DNA of 64,000 nt, from positions 480,001 through 544,000 of the forward strand of contig CBDHDF010000007.1 of the NCBI GenBank assembly GCA_965261545.1, read 5' to 3'. Source of the DNA: Bdellovibrionales bacterium. GTDB lineage: Bacteria > Bdellovibrionota > Bdellovibrionia > Bdellovibrionales > UBA1609. Shown one piece after another: positions 43,791 to 60,080 of this stretch. The position numbers were made by a program, and so were the translations under genes. Under the pieces are notes generated by a model. That model was not told where the DNA came from. It did no database searches and saw only the letters and a program-made list of their open reading frames with translations. Within the stretch, counting starts at the first letter, position 1, and the number at the start of each line of letters is the position of its first letter.

Positions 43791-45155
43791 ATGCGCCATT
43801 TGAAGAAGACACAGTTGGGACTCTTTTCCCAATATCCTAACCACCAACTCAGTACAGAATTGCAGCAAATTAATAACATCATTGATCGCCATCCAGAGTT
43901 TGCCCATATGGTTCATGAAGACCTTGTTAAAGAAAAGAAAGATTCTGGTGATATTGGTATGACATCGGAGCAAGTTCTCAAGGTGGCTATTCTTAAATCC
44001 ATAAGAGGTCTTTCCTATCGTGCGTTAGCCTTTAATCTTGTCGATTCAGTATCCACCAGAGCTTTTCTGGGCCTTGAATTGGAAGAAAATTACGCTCACT
44101 CCACCTTACAGGACTTGATTGTTCAAATAAGTGAAGAAACTTGGGGAATTATTAGCGCCTCTTTAGTTTCAGATGCAAGAGATCAAAAGATTGAGCCGTG
44201 TAAGAAAATGAGATTGGACAGTACAGTGACGAAATCAAATATTCATCATCCAACGGATGCATCGCTTTTATATGACTGCATAAGAGTTACAGAAAGAGAA
44301 TTTAAAAAAGTTCGTAAAAATGTCATGAAAGATTTTTGGCGACTTATTTCAAGAGAAGATCTTAAGAGAGCAAAAACCTTTCTTTACAAAATTAATAATT
44401 CCAAAAATGATGCGGAAAGACTACCTTGCTATAAGGAGCTTTTAAAAATCGCTACCAAATTGAACAAAGGATTACCTGATACCATCAGAAAGATAAAAAA
44501 AGAACAAAAATGTGTGAAGATGAATGCTTTGAAAAAGAGTCTAAAACAGTTAGAAAATGTTGCCTTCTACCTGGAAAAAATCATCTTTCAAACTCAAAAA
44601 AGAGTTATTGAGGGGAAAAAAGTATCTTCTGAAAAAAAGGTCCTATCCATCTTTGAACCGCATACAGACATTATTGTAAAGGGGCAAAGAGAAGTCGAGT
44701 TTGGGCATAAAATCTTTCTGACCTCAGGGCAAAGCAACATGATTTTAGATTGTCAGATCCCTGATGGCAACCCCGCAGACTCTGATATGTTTTTAAAAGT
44801 TATGAATTCAGTGACACAAACCTATGGGGCTTGCCCTGTAAAAGTAAGTGCAGATGGTGGGTTTGCTTCAAAAGAAAATCTTGAAGAGGCCAAAGAGATG
44901 GGGGCTAAAGATGTTTGCTTCCCAGAAAAAAAAGGAATGAAAATATTAAAGATGGTTAAAAGTGCTTGGGTCTTTAAAAATCTTCTCAATTGGAGAGCCG
45001 GAATAGAGGCTGTTATTTCATTCCTTAAGAGATGTTTTGGTATGAGAGTTGCTTACTGGAAAGGGCATGATGGTTTTAAGAGGTATGTAAAGAATGCCGT
45101 TTGTGCCTATAATTTTGTTGTCTTGGCAAGACATGAATTATCAACTGTCACCTAA
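43791..45155 (+). CDS. ISNCY-type DDE transposase, intact
   Basis: RLDSTV...IHHPTD, SIFEPHT, EFGHK, ADGGF, RAGIEAVISFLKR. Confidence 0.92.
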   Translation: MRHLKKTQLGLFSQYPNHQLSTELQQINNIIDRHPEFAHMVHEDLVKEKKDSGDIGMTSEQVLKVAILKSIRGLSYRALAFNLVDSVSTRAFLGLELEENYAHSTLQDLIVQISEETWGIISASLVSDARDQKIEPCKKMRLDSTVTKSNIHHPTDASLLYDCIRVTEREFKKVRKNVMKDFWRLISREDLKRAKTFLYKINNSKNDAERLPCYKELLKIATKLNKGLPDTIRKIKKEQKCVKMNALKKSLKQLENVAFYLEKIIFQTQKRVIEGKKVSSEKKVLSIFEPHTDIIVKGQREVEFGHKIFLTSGQSNMILDCQIPDGNPADSDMFLKVMNSVTQTYGACPVKVSADGGFASKENLEEAKEMGAKDVCFPEKKGMKILKMVKSAWVFKNLLNWRAGIEAVISFLKRCFGMRVAYWKGHDGFKRYVKNAVCAYNFVVLARHELSTVT

Positions 45156-45313
45156 ATTTATCCATTAGGAATAACAGCAATGGACCAGGTCGAAGGTGCT
45201 AAAATCTTCCAAAGGTAGGGGTGCGTCTTCAAATCGAAAAAACTAGGGCGCAAGTCGCTTAAAGACCTTTTTCCCCTTAATCTGTAGAGTTTGTGTGGCA
45301 AATCTCCAACTCT

Positions 45314-45353
45314 CACTCCCCCATTGAGGCATTGGGAGGCTCAATGGGGAGTG
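45314..45353. terminator. Long hairpin near the ISNCY right end
   Basis: cactcccccattgag...ctcaatgggggagtg; also present in copy 2 near 55630-55670. Confidence 0.6.
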
Positions 45354-46553
45354 TCAGAGAACAAAAAATGGGCCTTTCTGGACAGAAACTAGGTAGTTTT
45401 GAGAGTAATAGCATAACTCTCTACATAGGCTTTATTTATCTACAGAGATTATTAAGGCCCATGCTCAAGCCAGTAACTTCTTTATTGCGCGTTGTAAGCG
45501 AGGCTCTACTTTTATCCCCATCGTAAATTTATTTAATGGCCCAGGTTGGTATTCACAAATGGTTATTGAGGGGGTGGTCATTCATCTCTATAAGTATAAA
45601 AACCCAAAGACTGGGGAGTTCTCTGTTTTGGCCACTAATCTTCCGCATGGCTCCTTGGACAAGAAGGATATGGTTGCTCTTTACTCTCGTCGTTGGGAAA
45701 TAGAAACGACATTTCGTGATTTTACATCGACAATGAAAATGGAGCAGTGGCACTCAACAAGCCTTAATGGAATATTGCAAGAGCTGTATTCTTATTTTTG
45801 GCTCTTCAATTATACAAAGATTCAAATGAGCATAAATGAGGATGAAGACAGTGTGAATCAGTTGGTAAAAAATGACTACAAAAAACCTAACTTTAAACTG
45901 ATTCTTGATTTCATAATGGATAGCATCCCCCTTTTTGTTGCGGGGCTCTATCAGAAATTTAGGAAGCAGATAAAGTTGCTGATGAAGATTTCAATGGAGA
46001 AGAGGAGGCACTTCAAAAGAAGCTATGAAAGGTCTATCAAAAGGGCTGGGAGTTCTTTTAAAAGAAATAGCTTAACGCAGAGGCAGAGGGGTGTGGTGGC
46101 TTAAGGAAACGGCATTGATGCTTGATGGGAGCGTGACGATGTCGTTTACACCAGAGGCTAACGGATGCTAGCCCCCTGTCCAAACGACTTTTCATCGTGC
46201 CTCGAAAAACAACCCAGTTTCCTTTCTGTGATCTCCGCCATGTATGACTGAAACCTAAGAAGTCAAACGACTGGATTTTTCTCACATCCCTCTCGTATTC
46301 CTTGAGGTTCGTGCGGGAAATGCGGTACGGAGGAGGGCGGAAATCTACAATCCGAGACTTCTCGGGATGCATTGTTAAGCCAAATCGAGTAAGTCTTTTT
46401 GGCAACACCTCGTAGATTCGCCGTGCGTCCTCTTCCCTCTGGAATCCCATCACGAAGTCATCGCAGTATCGAGCCATAAACCCGTATCCTTTGAGTCGTG
46501 GTTTGACATCCTTCTCAAACCATTCATCTAAGACATAATGGAGAAATACGTTA

Positions 46554-54757: not shown

Positions 54758-56769
54758 GAACTATTATTCTGGTAAGTGGAAAAAAGGCCGCTCATATCAT
54801 AAGGACTCCCGACTTGGTAGGTACTGAAGTAGCCTTGGAGGTGTCGCTACTCCCACCACGGCCTTGAATAAAGCATGGGCGTTGCCTTTGATCTCTGTAC
54901 CAATGCCGTTTCCTTAAGAAAAATCTCTTGAAATCATTAGATAAATCGACAAGAATAAGACTTGTTTTATTTTACACCCAACCCTCAACCAAGGAGTAAG
55001 TCACATGCAATCCAATATTGATCTCGAAAGCCCCCAAATGACGAGTTCGCGTCACAGATGACCATTTTATTCTACCAAAACTTGATTCTTCCTTCAAGCC
55101 AGAGCACCTTGTCGATCCAGAAAAACAAAAAAGGAATCGAAAATTTAATCCTCAAATTTTCTTTTTTACCATTATCTATCTTATTTCCGGAACAAATTAC
55201 GAAGGCTACCAAATCGCTCTTAAGACGGTATGGACTCATTTTGGTGACCTGCTTCTCATGCCAGTCAAAAGCAGTCTCAGCAAGATACGTCAAAGTATTT
55301 CTTACCTATTTTTTAAAAATATCTTTGAATCTCTGATTACAGACTACGAACCATTGAGAAAAACGTTTCATGGCTTTTATATCTATGCCATAGATGGCGA
55401 CCAATTAGCACTTCCTCGCTCTAAAGATCTTTTAAAGGAGGGTTATTGTGGGTACCCTTGCCCAAATGAGATGGAAACTCATTTCTTACGTATGTATCTA
55501 TCTCATGCTTATGACGTTTTATCGGGTGTGACAAAGAATCTTTGCTATTCTCCCGCTCTCAACGAAATCGCCAATGCTATTCAAATGATAGGTAGTTTCT
55601 GTCCAGAAAGGCCCATTTTTTGTTCTCTGACACTCCCCATTGAGCCTCCCAATGCCTCAATGGGGGAGTGAGAGTTGGAGATTTGCCACACAAACTCTAC
55701 AGATTAAGGGGAAAAAGGTCTTTAAGCGACTTGCGCCCTAGTTTTTTCGATTTGAAGACGCACCCCTACCTTTGGAAGATTTTAGCACCTTCGACCTGGT
55801 CCATTGCTGTTATTCCTAATGGATAAATTTAGGTGACAGTTGATAATTCATGTCTTGCCAAGACAACAAAATTATAGGCACAAACGGCATTCTTTACATA
55901 CCTCTTAAAACCATCATGCCCTTTCCAGTAAGCAACTCTCATACCAAAACATCTCTTAAGGAATGAAATAACAGCCTCTATTCCGGCTCTCCAATTGAGA
56001 AGATTTTTAAAGACCCAAGCACTTTTAACCATCTTTAATATTTTCATTCCTTTTTTTTCTGGGAAGCAAACATCTTTAGCCCCCATCTCTTTGGCCTCTT
56101 CAAGATTTTCTTTTGAAGCAAACCCACCATCTGCACTTACTTTTACAGGGCAAGCCCCATAGGTTTGTGTCACTGAATTCATAACTTTTAAAAACATATC
56201 AGAGTCTGCGGGGTTGCCATCAGGGATCTGACAATCTAAAATCATGTTGCTTTGCCCTGAGGTCAAAAAGATTTTATGCCCAAACTCGACTTCTCTTTGC
56301 CCCTTTACAATAATGTCTGTATGCGGTTCAAAGATGGATAGGACCTTTTTTTCAGAAGATACTTTTTTCCCCTCAATAACTCTTTTTTGAGTTTGAAAGA
56401 TGATTTTTTCCAGGTAGAAGGCAACATTTTCTAACTGTTTTAGACTCTTTTTCAAAGCATTCATCTTCACACATTTTTGTTCTTTTTTTATCTTTCTGAT
56501 GGTATCAGGTAATCCTTTGTTCAATTTGGTAGCGATTTTTAAAAGCTCCTTATAGCAAGGTAGTCTTTCCGCATCATTTTTGGAATTATTAATTTTGTAA
56601 AGCAAGGTTTTTGCTCTCTTAAGATCTTCTCTTGAAATAAGTCGCCAAAAATCTTTCATGACATTTTTACGAACTTTTTTAAATTCTCTTTCTGTAACTC
56701 TTATGCAGTCATATAAAAGCGATGCATCCGTTGGATGATGAATATTTGATCACTCATGTTGATACCCCC

Positions 56770-58815
56770 TTAGTAACGTAGCTTTTTAATTGATCCGGAC
56801 TTAAGTTTTTTAAAGTCAGATATGGTTTTTTTCTTATCTGGAAAGAGATAAGCCTTTGTTTTCTCGTGTTTTTTGACAATGATCCTCCCTTGTTTAATAT
56901 GGTGATAAATCCAATGAACTTTAACATCAATAAGTGCTGCAATTTGAGATGTTGTGAGGCTTCCCTCGACTTTGGTCGGAAAAGAGTGCTTTCGATTCCG
57001 ATAGATTTTATTGTTTAGTCTATAGGACTTCACAGTATTTCTGAGAAAAGTGGTATCCATTGGTGATCTGAATCCTTTTTGGGTCAATAGTTTGGCAATA
57101 TCTTCATCAGACACCCCAAGCTTGACCTGCTGCGCAATTATTTTCTTTATCGTTTCAGAAGATGACAGTTCATCAAAAGATCCAACTTTGATTGGAATGC
57201 TAGCTTCTGTTGTATCTCCTCCAATCCAAACAATTCTCAGTGCAACCATATCTCTTTTCTTTCTGTGAATGACAACCTTTTCAACCAATGTTCTAAGAAT
57301 TTTCTTTTTCATGTCTTTGGTCAATATCTTATCCTCCCATAGCGAAGGTAGTTTTTGATTCAAATCTGAAAATTCTCTTTTCATTTTTTGAGAGATCACA
57401 GTTGGAATACGCTGTTCATTCTTAACCCTCTCTAGGTGATCTTCGGCTTTTTTAAGTATTACTAAAGCCTCTTCCCATTGTGTTTCTAATTCATCTGCAA
57501 CAAGTCTATTCTCAGGGTCTACTTTGCGATACCTCTTTTCTACCAGTTGAGCTTCATACCTTAAACGCTGAATTTGCTGAATGTGTGATTTGTAAACCTC
57601 TTGGTCAATTTTTGACTTATTTTCTAAAGCCTTGGCATACAAGTCTAGCTCGACAGGGGAAAGAACCTTAAAAAAAGTGTTTACTACATAATCATCGATT
57701 GGATCTGTAGGAATGAATTGGCAAGTAGGTTCCCGATGTTGTTGGCGTAGATAGTTGCATAAGTATCGAGTTGCTGTTTTATACTGCACTGACATTTTGT
57801 GGCCACATTCTCCACAATAGACTATCCCATGTAAGAGGGCCTTACCAGGGCGAGGTATGCCTCTTGTTTTATTACGAGTATATTCAGTGTAGTTGTCTTT
57901 TAGAATTTCTTGTATTTTTAAGAATGTATTCCAATCGATATATTTAGGATATTTATCTTTCACAACAATTTTCCATTCATTAAGTGGAAGCTTTGTACGC
58001 TTAAGTTTTCCAGCTAAGTCTTTTCTACGGTATTCAGCTTTGCCATATACAAAAGTTCCGCTATAAGCTGGATTCTTCAAAATAGAAAGTATGGCTGCCT
58101 TGGATGTTTTTTTCCAATGAATACTTTTTACAAAATCAACTCTTGGAAGTAAGAGGTTGTTATCGTTAAAAAATCGCGACACCTTACCGGCTGATTTCAG
58201 TTTTAAGAATATAGTAAATACTAAATTTATGCGATCTTGTAAATCTTTATTTGGATCTTTTAGCACTTTACCTTGTTCTGTTCGAATAAAACCAACTGGT
58301 AATTTAAGAGCTAAATCTCCTCGCTTGGCTTTGTTGAGAAGACCTGCTGTTAATCTATTGCGTATCGTAAATAATTCCATTTCTGAGAGTTGACCTTTAA
58401 ACCCGAGTAACATTCTTCCATTAACATTAGAAGGGTTATAAATAGACTCTCTATCAGCAATGAGGCAATTCTTAAAAGCACACAGATCAAGTAATTGGTA
58501 CCAGTCCGTACAGTTTCTAGATAGACGAGTGACATCGTACGATAGAATAATACCAATTTTTTCCAAGGTCACTTCTGCAAGGATATTCTTGAAGCCTTCT
58601 CTAAACTGTATACTACTTCCTGTGATCCCCAAATCATCATCGACAATTTCAATACTATCTTCTTGCCAACCTAATTCAGTAGCTCTTTGCCTGAGTGAGT
58701 ATTGAAGGTCGAGACTTTCTTTGTTTTTGATGGCTTGCTGAGGGGTCGACTGTCTGATGTATATTATGGCTTTTCTCTTTAAGTGAATAGGTGTAATCAA
58801 TTCCGATGTTTTCAT
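56770..58815 (-). CDS. Large serine recombinase (resolvase, recombinase, zinc ribbon and C-terminal HTH)
   Basis: AIIYIRQS catalytic Ser, TRLSR, ILKNPAYSG, LLHGIVYCGECG, VDPENRLVA; GAGGAG RBS. Confidence 0.95.
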   Translation of the reverse strand: MKTSELITPIHLKRKAIIYIRQSTPQQAIKNKESLDLQYSLRQRATELGWQEDSIEIVDDDLGITGSSIQFREGFKNILAEVTLEKIGIILSYDVTRLSRNCTDWYQLLDLCAFKNCLIADRESIYNPSNVNGRMLLGFKGQLSEMELFTIRNRLTAGLLNKAKRGDLALKLPVGFIRTEQGKVLKDPNKDLQDRINLVFTIFLKLKSAGKVSRFFNDNNLLLPRVDFVKSIHWKKTSKAAILSILKNPAYSGTFVYGKAEYRRKDLAGKLKRTKLPLNEWKIVVKDKYPKYIDWNTFLKIQEILKDNYTEYTRNKTRGIPRPGKALLHGIVYCGECGHKMSVQYKTATRYLCNYLRQQHREPTCQFIPTDPIDDYVVNTFFKVLSPVELDLYAKALENKSKIDQEVYKSHIQQIQRLRYEAQLVEKRYRKVDPENRLVADELETQWEEALVILKKAEDHLERVKNEQRIPTVISQKMKREFSDLNQKLPSLWEDKILTKDMKKKILRTLVEKVVIHRKKRDMVALRIVWIGGDTTEASIPIKVGSFDELSSSETIKKIIAQQVKLGVSDEDIAKLLTQKGFRSPMDTTFLRNTVKSYRLNNKIYRNRKHSFPTKVEGSLTTSQIAALIDVKVHWIYHHIKQGRIIVKKHEKTKAYLFPDKKKTISDFKKLKSGSIKKLRY

Positions 58816-58839
58816 ATATAATCTCCTCAATGGCTAAAG

Positions 58840-59201
58840 TTAAGTCTTTGATGACTTGCTTTTGAATTTCTTTTGGCAGTCTTGGCCAGACATCTTTTGG
58901 TGTAATTGACATAGTTGCTCTTCCAGTTGTTGAGTCAGTGAAATTAGCTCCTGAATTGCAACTATACCAAGTTTGCTTGGGGCCTGCCTATCGTAGAGAT
59001 TGGGGTTCAGATTGGTAGAAGCCAATGGTATGCGTAGCGTCATGTGGTTCTTGTATTGAACAAAAGCAAAAGTAGATTTTTTCTGATTTTTAGGTATGGA
59101 AATCACCTTGAATGACTTCCTATAAAGGGGATGGGAGGGGTCCGTGACCCTTAGCTCTCTAAAACCTCTGTCGTTGACGGGGGTATTAAGTAATGGACTC
59201 G
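58840..59201 (-). CDS. Accessory ORF (resembles Y4bD/DUF5372 type), open to the element end with no start before its conserved motif
   Basis: Frame reads SPLLNTPVNDRGFRELRVTDPSHPLYRKSFKVISIP...; first in-frame start (GTG 59106) lies after the VTDPSHPL motif. Confidence 0.75.
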
Positions 59202-60080
59202 TTTGATTTCGTCACTGTACTGTCCAATCTCATTTTCTTACACGGCTCAATCTTTTGATCTCTTGCATCTGAAACTAAAGAGGCGCTAATAATTCCCCAA
59301 GTTTCTTCACTTATTTGAACAATCAAGTCCTGTAAGGTGGAGTGAGCGTAATTTTCTTCCAATTCAAGGCCCAGAAAAGCTCTGGTGGATACTGAATCGA
59401 CAAGATTAAAGGCTAACGCACGATAGGAAAGACCTCTTATGGATTTAAGAATAGCCACCTTGAGAACTTGCTCCGATGTCATACCAATATCACCAGAATC
59501 TTTCTTTTCTTTAACAAGGTCTTCATGAACCATATGGGCAAACTCTGGATGGCGATCAATGATGTTATTAATTTGCTGCAATTCTGTACTGAGTTGGTGG
59601 TTAGGATATTGGGAAAAGAGTCCCAACTGTGTCTTCTTCAAATGGCGCATAGTCCCCCCTTTGGTGAAAGTTTCTCTTTAATTTTTATATTAACATACGT
59701 TTTTTTGAGGGAAAAAAGTGAGCAAGGATGTCTTTTAAGAAGAAAAAAATCAGAGAGGTTCTCGGAGAACATGGATAAGAATTCTACCTCATAGAGAGGT
59801 TCCCACGCCTCCTAAAACCTACATAAAAAATAAATGAAGAATAAAATATCAAAAATTATTTCTCTGAAAAAACACGTCAAGTATTTTTTGAAGTTGATGC
59901 GCAACGTAATGTTATTTCCCTGAAGGAGGTTTGAAATCACCACGGTGGAAACACAGGTTGATCCAACTCTTCCTCTCATATCAAGTAACCAGTTGATAGC
60001 CACATAAGTCACTGAAAGGGAGGGGCTGTGAAAGGTTCGTCAAGAGAGGGGGGGGGGGGAACTTATTTTATTTTTCCGTT

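Follow-up and report, generated by a model that had tools for sequence, protein, structure and literature searches.

A minimal large serine recombinase element with a gene that is split by its attachment site and probably translated only from the excised circle

We describe a mobile element found in a 64,000-nt stretch of a Bdellovibrionales bacterium genome (assembly GCA_965261545.1, contig CBDHDF010000007.1, positions 480,001 to 544,000 of the forward strand; this whole stretch is referred to below as the window and is numbered from its first letter). Judged from its sequence, this mobile element is minimal, with a length of 2,457 bp, and is moved by a large serine recombinase (LSR). In the predicted circular form its attachment site, attP, sits inside the first 13 codons of the element's own first gene, here called gene A. 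The arrangement is best explained if this attP-split gene is translated only from the excised circle, a reading that we consider probable. An earlier note on this stretch, based on the letters alone, had proposed such a gene, and its individual claims are taken up with the results that bear on them.

The element lies on the minus strand at 56746–59202, measured between the crossover midpoints, and comparison with the empty site defines a unique part of 56751–59201. The core is present at both ends, reading TTTGAT on the plus strand at the LSR-side junction (56745–56750) and at the gene-A-side junction (59202–59207), with 2,451 bp separating the two copies. The central dinucleotide TT falls at 56745–56746, where it is placed by the 12+12 nt symmetry of the flanking arms, and at 59202–59203. 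An empty target site (attB) occurs within the window on the plus strand, in an intact copy of the interrupted insertion sequence (IS), at 44228–44251. It reads GACGAA-ATCAAA-TATTCATCATCC, with both flanks joined through one core (44234–44239), and the uninterrupted site GACGAA-ATCAAA-TATTCA spans 44228–44245. Public contigs of the organism, available from four runs of one sample, with no RNA run listed, and kept as contigs only, include the occupied form at a depth of 30–39 and the empty form at a depth of 59–140. In the contigs of the four runs the empty form appears as a joint from 56744 to 59202, with exactly 2,457 bp left out. The insertion is conservative: the empty site is precise, nothing of the target is duplicated apart from the shared core, and the inverted repeats are imperfect.

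The inverted repeats form the two arms of attP. The left arm (56758–56769) is GGGGGTATCAAC in gene orientation, and the right arm (59179–59190) is CTTAATACCCCC, which is also the stretch of gene A that encodes the residues L-N-T-P. These 12-nt arms are complementary at 10 of 12 positions, and each lies 12 nt from the central AA (TT on the plus strand). The codon wobble positions of L-N-T-P are invariant across the family, and the constraint on this arm must therefore act on the DNA. A Shine-Dalgarno (SD)-like run, GGGGG (56765–56769), falls inside the left arm. The earlier note had given exact ends with an empty site near 44230–44245, inverted repeats symmetric about a central TT, and a ribosome binding site within one repeat arm, and all three descriptions hold.

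Gene A is divided between the two ends of the integrated element. Its body, from codon 5 (ACG) to the TAA stop codon, occupies 58840–59202 on the minus strand. The open reading frame (ORF) is open to the end of the element, and in the integrated state it is preceded by a TGA three codons beyond that end. Its first ATG, GTG or TTG is a GTG at 59106, downstream of the sequence encoding VTDPSHPLY. At the opposite end, the TAA stop codon of the LSR gene (56772–56770) is followed by GGGGGTATCAAC-ATG (56757–56755)-AGT-G and then by ATCAAA. The GGGGG stands directly after the LSR stop codon and 7 nt before this ATG, which is on the minus strand, points out of the element, and would become the start codon of gene A, with codons 2–4 (AGT GAT CAA) running through the core. 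When the ends are joined in silico through one core, the result is a 124-codon frame beginning MSDQTSPLLNTPV, whose predicted 124-aa product has the N-terminal peptide MSDQTSPLLNTPVNDR. The absence of a start codon before VTDPSHPLY, the outward-facing ribosome binding site and ATG directly behind the recombinase, here GGGGG-N7-ATG plus two codons, and the in-frame 124-codon gene, which we recomputed by script, had all been put forward in the earlier note and were reproduced. We also considered whether the ATG restarts the interrupted transposase. This was ruled out, as in the integrated state it opens an outward ORF of merely 18 codons that is not in the transposase frame.

The split layout is conserved in relatives. 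We compared 79 loci from species-representative genomes together with that of the window, 80 in all. The 79 loci span Planctomycetota, Chloroflexota, Cyanobacteria, Alpha-, Gamma- and Deltaproteobacteria, Acidobacteria, Rubrobacter, Gemmatimonadota and a Wolbachia record, and Actinobacteria-like metagenome-assembled genomes are also among the sources of the conserved design. In nearly all loci gene A is directly upstream of an LSR of 680–700 aa. At the 5' end, copies within one genome (e.g. L026, L028, L029, L031 and L032) diverge exactly upstream of the conserved ACG codon, and in some copies (L031, L073–L075) a stop codon immediately precedes it (TGA ACG). At the 3' end, the LSR stop codon is followed by the motif (A/G)GGRG-N-ATCAAS-ATG-NNN-NNT-CGA-A, beyond which the flanks diverge; the SD sequence of the homologues (GGAGG, AGGGG or AGGAG) is at the same place. 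A regular expression for this motif (purine-rich SD-ATCAAS-ATG-N5-TC) matched 56 of the 80 loci, 1.8–2.9 kb after the stop codon of gene A; 68 of the 80 had enough sequence to be assessed. The ATG is invariant in all 56 motif-bearing loci. Codons 2 and 3 vary, and the tetrapeptides encoded at the junction are MPSR, MRDR, MRNR, MHDR, MPNR, MPDR, MTNR, MSNR, MPYR, MPLR and MSDQ. The mirror triplet in the right half-site is also variable (GCA, GTG, TTG, TAA or GTA), and thus symmetric recombinase contacts do not explain the ATG.

Both ends could be defined for 51 loci, which form 23 clusters at 80% nucleotide identity, and these were circularized in silico. An unconstrained search for inverted repeats was too noisy and was replaced by one anchored on the 3' motif. 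The crossover was then set either 12 nt from each inverted-repeat arm, with the reading frame unused (arm rule), or by the shared core (core rule). The joined gene is in frame and open in 49 of the 51 loci under the arm rule and in 47 under the core rule. No locus of the 51 fails both rules, and apart from L043 the misses come from mis-picked anchors. The geometry of the inverted repeats about the central dinucleotide is the same in 49 of the 51 relatives, and the position of the core is constant. Alternative starts are scarce: 75 of the 80 loci (54 of 59 unique sequences) have no ATG, GTG or TTG in the 21 codons before VTDP, and an ATG is found there in none. The valine of VTDP is encoded by GTG in 5 of 59 unique sequences, compared with 157 of 393 other valine codons in the same ORFs. 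From VTDP onwards, the first canonical start usually comes at least 14 codons in, past the most conserved motif. The earlier note had named outcomes that would speak against its proposal, among them internal starts or a random frame in homologues and a different core length. Circularized relatives are in frame far more often than the one in three expected by chance, most have no internal start upstream of the motif, and the core keeps its position.

Proteins that begin as a joined gene would are present in public collections. Among 152 homologues of the gene A product (P0003–P0154, taken from 232 cluster representatives at E≤1e-3), three begin with M-x-x-R-T, the N-terminus predicted for a junction. 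P0047 (MPDRTIPQL...) is identical at 94 of 114 positions to the gene A product of L056, and MPDR is encoded 2.5 kb away, at the far end of L056. Similarly, P0086 (MPYRTKPYL...) is identical at 60 of 74 positions to that of L100, whose far end encodes MPYR. The third, P0097 (MTYR...), fits the junction pattern, but its nearest locus encodes MHDR. The contig carrying P0047 is 2,600 nt long and the L056 element is 2,567 bp, and we infer that a circle would yield a contig of this length from a k=31 assembler. As far as can be judged from the predicted N-termini, these proteins imply that joined forms exist. Scans for the junction itself gave no examples: among the metagenome matches listed for a degenerate junction motif, 0 of 80 loci have gene A downstream, all 80 being chance matches to a pattern that was too loose, and a longer junction motif had 0 matches in viral contigs.

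We propose that LSR-mediated excision joins the ends of the element at the central AA and that this fuses the SD sequence, the ATG and three codons to the body of gene A. The resulting 2.46-kb circle would be a closed operon, LSR > A > X > LSR, where X is a small ORF described below, with gaps of 11–60 nt and with gene A translated. Translation of gene A on the circle is probably coupled to that of the LSR gene. Integration would again split gene A from its start and silence it. Since integration removes the initiation region, the product of gene A should be specific to the circle state. A sigma-70-like promoter spanning the joint in the orientation of the gene was found in 0 of 51 in-silico joints, other promoter types being outside this test, and a switch of this kind would thus act at translation and not through a junction promoter. 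The recombination-gated translational switch proposed in the earlier note is supported by the in-frame circles, the lack of internal starts and the lack of a joint-spanning sigma-70-like promoter.

Several observations weigh against this interpretation or limit what the conservation can tell us. The 3' motif has no regular expression match in 12 of the 68 assessable loci; in two of these, L065 and L088, the motif can be recognized by eye, in L023 and L055 the LSR is intact and no clear 3' motif follows it, and the remainder have truncated or shifted LSR frames. In L043 the right spacer is 1 nt longer and the joined gene is out of frame under the core rule, which could reflect a pseudogene or an assembly indel. 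Because the loci share ancestry, their counts are a measure of conservation and cannot be taken as independent trials. Since the other arm mirrors the G-run, conservation of the SD sequence and ATG is partly a constraint on the DNA site, and as asymmetric half-sites are normal for attP, a mirror triplet that is not conserved is no proof of a start codon. The first 16 residues of the gene A product are modelled as coil, and with their wobble positions fixed by the DNA site they may not matter as protein. A canonical role as a recombination directionality factor (RDF) fits badly, because an excision factor would be absent exactly when it is needed. Finally, the contigs of the four runs contain no circle joint, although contigs cannot show rare forms and this absence says nothing on circles, and none of 6 assemblies, from this genome and five others with copies of the element, contains the degenerate junction motif.

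The product of gene A belongs to a sizeable family. An exhaustive HMMER search returned the 232 cluster representatives at E≤1e-3, 37 of them at E≤1e-10, and a gene A query had no match in 60 genomes of relatives. The alignment shows LNTPxxNP, about 10 variable residues, and then E(I/V)E-VTDPxHPLFGRRF. An AlphaFold2 model built from 56 sequences (pLDDT 80.9) has, after the coil of residues 1–16, a four-strand SH3-like barrel (residues 17–60), a helix (81–100) and a basic tail, and the product is accordingly predicted to be a small SH3-like-barrel-plus-helix protein. A Foldseek search against the PDB gave nothing at E≤0.001, the best matches being PsaE and Tudor at about 0.03, and the best matches in a wide fold search with VIA were NdhS (Z 4.9, root mean square deviation 2.0 over 47 residues) and the NusG KOW domain (Z 4.7). 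The VIA matches reflect a generic SH3-like barrel, and no function can be derived from the fold. PHROGs and NCBIfam contain no family for the protein. The Pfam family DUF5372 (PF17342), of which our full-text literature search found no mention, matches 23 of 56 family members at E≤0.1 (best 6.3e-07). P0013 scores 21.1 bits against a gathering score of 25, the protein of the window has no DUF5372 match at E≤1, and among ESM Atlas neighbours PF17342 is present in 12–61% of their members. One homologue, P0003, looks like a fusion between the N-terminus of another IS protein and the C-terminus of the gene A product.

Annotation pipelines appear to miss or truncate gene A. It is not listed on a PGAP-annotated Microvirga plasmid, which is only a hint given that PLSDB tables omit pseudogenes, and the gene call on a Mesorhizobium plasmid uses an internal start, giving a protein of 97 aa. 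A predicted complex between the gene A product and the LSR, computed with our own alignments, has an ipSAE of 0.59, whereas the best of 3 controls scores 0.00; the runs share at least 95% of contacts, and the partner pLDDT is at least 63. The ipSAE mark used is passed by 116 of 157 solved complexes and by 2 of 215 mismatched pairs, and the band at or below 0.60 holds 18 of the 157 solved complexes and both passing mismatches. The prediction thus gives weak support for binding between the two proteins.

The LSR (681 aa; 56770–58815, minus strand) has its own SD sequence, GAGGAG, at 58823–58828. It matches the Pfam families Resolvase (PF00239, 6.7e-20), Recombinase (PF07508, 2.6e-18) and Zn_ribbon_recom (PF13408, 3.1e-09), all above the cut-offs, and a PHROG annotated as integrase (1.6e-65). 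The best NCBIfam match is XisF (3.9e-29), at 101.9 bits far under the 375-bit cut-off. The protein has a C-terminal extension of about 140 aa (residues about 540–681, window positions 56770–57200), many residues of which are conserved across the family. Residues 620–650 of this extension have a weak match to HTH_17, an excisionase-type helix-turn-helix (E 0.005, below the cut-off), and the extension also matches a PHROG annotated as DNA binding protein at 0.0024. In one subfamily (L027, L034, L041, L043, L045, L052, L062, L063, L071 and L078) the LSR stop codon is lost and the SD-ATG motif is kept. There the LSR ORF runs through the SD-ATG region and ends at a TAA or TGA overlapping junction codons 2–3. 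A promoter scan of the integrated element found 8 sites compared with 8.8 expected; one of these is inside gene A, on the coding strand (58990–58961).

A further conserved ORF, X (78 aa; 58676–58912, minus strand), overlaps the tail of gene A and the first 46 codons of the LSR gene. Upstream of the LSR ATG it occupies the +2 frame; it has a GAGG and ATG of its own and is conserved in homologous loci L023–L101 with the consensus M(S/P)IxPxxVWxRLPxxLQxxIxxDLxxIxQEVI(H/Y). Its ATG is 97 nt before that of the LSR in 39 of 57 unique versions, with the GAGG 4–5 nt upstream, and across the family its last 116–227 nt (about 40–75 codons) lie within the LSR gene. In the gene A product, the conserved columns LC and SG are shadows of the M and VW of X. 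When LSR codons were resampled synonymously in the four lowest-GC lineages, the probability of X remaining open over its observed length was P=0.019 (the lineage of the window), 0.049, 0.020 and 0.038. We considered X as a possible N-terminal extension of the LSR made by a +1 frameshift and set this idea aside; the shift site has no re-pairing codon. Between the gene A stop codon and the LSR ATG, 23 of 60 unique versions have a distance of -4 or 3 nt, and indels never occur in this stretch. In the window the distance is 24 nt, and the LSR gene has a good SD sequence of its own in nearly all lineages. Taken together, the cistrons of A, X and the LSR look translationally linked.

The restored empty sites reveal a preference in targets. 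In 36 of the 51 loci they encode, across the joint, the reverse transcriptase (RT) motif (D/E)xD(I/L)xx(F/C)FD, and one such flank was confirmed as RVT_1 (4e-08). The element is antisense to its target in 35 of these 36 loci. The sole sense-oriented insertion among them is L047, which has a central TT instead of AA; this is what would be expected if the central dinucleotide of a serine recombinase sets orientation. A central dinucleotide other than AA is also present in L098 (TT) and L080 (TA-like). Other targets include IS3/IS481-like transposase motifs (L027 and L080), the HRDLKPSN motif of a Ser/Thr kinase (L098) and dctP. These assignments draw on the flanks of L026–L100 and on L222 (3470–3600 and 5930–6010). 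The family thus appears to home into conserved motifs in the genes of other mobile elements, mostly the DIxxFFD of reverse transcriptases.

In the genome of the window (4.3 Mb, 11 contigs) the target is a DDE transposase gene. Its 5' part (59208–59650, minus strand) enters the element for 16 nt and stops at 59186, and its 3' part lies at 55829–56744 on the same strand. An intact copy encodes 454 aa (DDE_Tnp_1, 1.7e-12), and the insertion point lies within the stretch DSTVTKSN/IHHPTD, at the slash. The element is present in 8 full copies at 99.8–100% identity, in addition to fragments, and all three ORFs are intact in all 8. The left flank is common to all 8 copies and the right flank to 7. Of the approximately 55 copies of the IS, 47 are empty and 8 are occupied, and 2 further left junctions lack a right end. 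The occupied copies are spread over at least four IS haplotypes that also include empty copies, which favours repeated site-specific integration over carriage as an IS-borne passenger.

Some features of these copies and their surroundings deserve mention. In one full copy the flank on the LSR side differs beyond ATCAAAT. Damaged or deviant copies are located at C11:326875-331346, C11:191233-193683, C10:8499-8588 and C7:583399-584343; one damaged copy is interrupted by about 2 kb of inserted DNA, and two are terminal fragments. The 165 bp following an IS copy in the 45156–45555 region of the window (probe positions 2000–2165) recur about 100 times in the genome, so a second abundant repeat abuts the target IS. 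There is a further IS-like ORF in the window at 55258–55671.

What the gene A product might do on the circle is the least certain part of our proposal. We suggest that it acts together with the LSR during the extrachromosomal phase, in which it may commit the element to integrating. A second possibility is that more LSR is made from the circle because translation is coupled through A and X, in the manner of junction promoters elsewhere. A broader and decidedly more tentative reading joins these observations into a family-wide state sensor, in which a circle-only gene A product binds the recombinase and sets the next step. It could then commit the circle to integration, or work in trans by setting off a burst of excision among sister copies. 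In this reading X is included, three genes and attP being packed into 2.46 kb, and the family would consist of hyperparasites that home into the catalytic-motif codons of the reverse transcriptases and transposases of other mobile elements.

Other explanations for the arrangement must be weighed. It is unlikely, in our estimation, that the GGGGG-N7-ATG is merely an attP half-site and that gene A is translated in the integrated state from a near-cognate, flank-fusion or internal start, the in-frame relation being a by-product of fixed attP geometry. Such an explanation would account for the G-run mirrored in the other arm and for an ATG that lies within the site, 10–12 nt from the crossover, and the 12+12 nt spacers are multiples of three by geometry alone. 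Gene callers also find flank-derived starts in some integrated copies (P0004, MVHGQYCQT; P0005, MGCYRT). However, the ATG is invariant though its neighbours and the mirror triplet vary, and fusion to the flank is opposed by the stop codons often found directly before the element (L031, L073–L075, and the TGA three codons upstream in the window) and by the antisense orientation of most elements relative to the target gene (35 of 36 RT targets). Internal initiation is difficult to reconcile with the depletion of GTG at the conserved valine (5 of 59 compared with 157 of 393) and with internal starts that lie after the most conserved motif. Proteins with junction-type N-termini also exist.

The junction start may instead be real, and gene A, together with X, may act chiefly as a leader whose translation delivers ribosomes to the LSR gene by coupling. 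The integrated copy would then make little recombinase and the circle would produce a burst of it, a translational equivalent of the junction promoters of Tn4451 and IS elements. The distance of -4 or 3 nt between gene A and the LSR gene in 23 of 60 unique versions, free of indels, is what this would predict, as are the overlaps of X with both genes and the LSR stop codon that abuts the SD sequence of gene A, which make the circle a closed chain of coupled cistrons. We regard it as improbable that this is the main function, as the conserved and confidently modelled fold and the strongly conserved motifs argue for a working protein, the LSR has its own good SD sequence in nearly all lineages (GAGGAG here, across a 24-nt gap), and the predicted contact with the LSR (0.59 compared with 0.00 for the best control) offers weak support for a direct partner. 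It is very improbable that the element is no longer mobile here and that its copies have spread as passengers of the IS, leaving the split gene as a relic. All 8 copies do occupy the same site of the same IS, and no circle junction is present in assemblies or contigs. However, the occupied copies fall into at least four IS haplotypes shared with empty copies, the three ORFs are intact in 8 of 8 copies at 99.8–100% identity, and relatives with the same exact ends are found across numerous targets and genomes. Translation of gene A from the excised circle therefore remains the explanation that we prefer.

Expression that depends on a circle junction has precedents. In Tn4451 and Tn4453, which encode the LSR TnpX, the circular intermediate reportedly forms the tnpX promoter (Lyras & Rood 2000); Tn4451 carries cargo and is multi-targeting. 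Tn4451 resembles the element described here, with its putative circle, in that it is LSR-driven, has a non-replicating circle, and switches on an element gene by joining its ends. However, in Tn4451 a -35/-10 promoter is assembled and drives the recombinase, whereas here none of 51 joints has a spanning sigma-70-like promoter, and an SD sequence, ATG and first codons would be assembled onto the body of a different, non-recombinase gene. The element here is also only 2.46 kb and site-specific. Circle junction promoters are found in IS911, IS30 and IS492 as well. For IS110/IS1111 elements, a junction promoter in IS circles has been described (PMC11187229). These IS circles likewise link expression to the circle state through joined ends. 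However, their transposases are of the DDE or DEDD type and the effect is on transcription, whereas the element here would use a serine recombinase and assemble a translation start and an ORF.

Splitting of an element's own gene by attP also has a parallel. In the archaeal 'suicidal' tyrosine integrases of the SSV type, attP lies within an ORF and integration splits the gene (PMC7253208). These integrases are like gene A in that attP is inside an element ORF and the intact gene is present in the circle only; they differ in being archaeal tyrosine recombinases in which the integrase itself is cut mid-ORF into two pseudogenes. Here the serine recombinase ORF is intact when integrated, and it is a separate small gene that is split after codon 4. 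Precise excision of LSR elements that interrupt a gene restores that gene in the XisF-encoding fdxN element and in the SpoIVCA-encoding skin element, and invertases swap parts of ORFs. The fdxN and skin elements are, like the element here, LSR elements within a gene, and XisF is the best NCBIfam match of this LSR. In contrast, they are large and single-copy and restore a host gene, whereas the element here is multi-copy and minimal, lies in other mobile elements, and would restore its own gene.

Serine integrases are accompanied by RDFs, such as gp3 of phiC31 and gp47 of Bxb1, which bind the integrase and switch it to recombination between attL and attR, and which are needed in the integrated state. 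Such factors are mentioned in passages of an LSR census (PMC10083194). The gene A product resembles an RDF as a small accessory protein encoded beside the LSR and possibly binding it. However, there is no relation in sequence or fold, and an RDF is needed when the gene A product could not be made. Our full-text literature search found no description of this family or of a circle-junction start codon in serine-recombinase elements, and the searched passages of the census (PMC10083194) mention neither the family nor a junction start.

If the proposed switch operates, mobile DNA would have a new means of sensing its own state, integrated or free, by using its recombination site to split a gene from its translation start. 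LSRs are valued tools for genome engineering, and to our knowledge their accessory factors are mostly unknown. The gene A product, as a circle-specific partner, and X are candidate factors for the control of recombination direction or efficiency. Homing into RT and transposase motifs would also make the family a natural parasite of other mobile elements and possibly a brake on them. In comparison with the systems above, dependence of expression on the junction is a known idea; what appears to be new here is that it would be achieved through a translation start assembled across the attP of an LSR.

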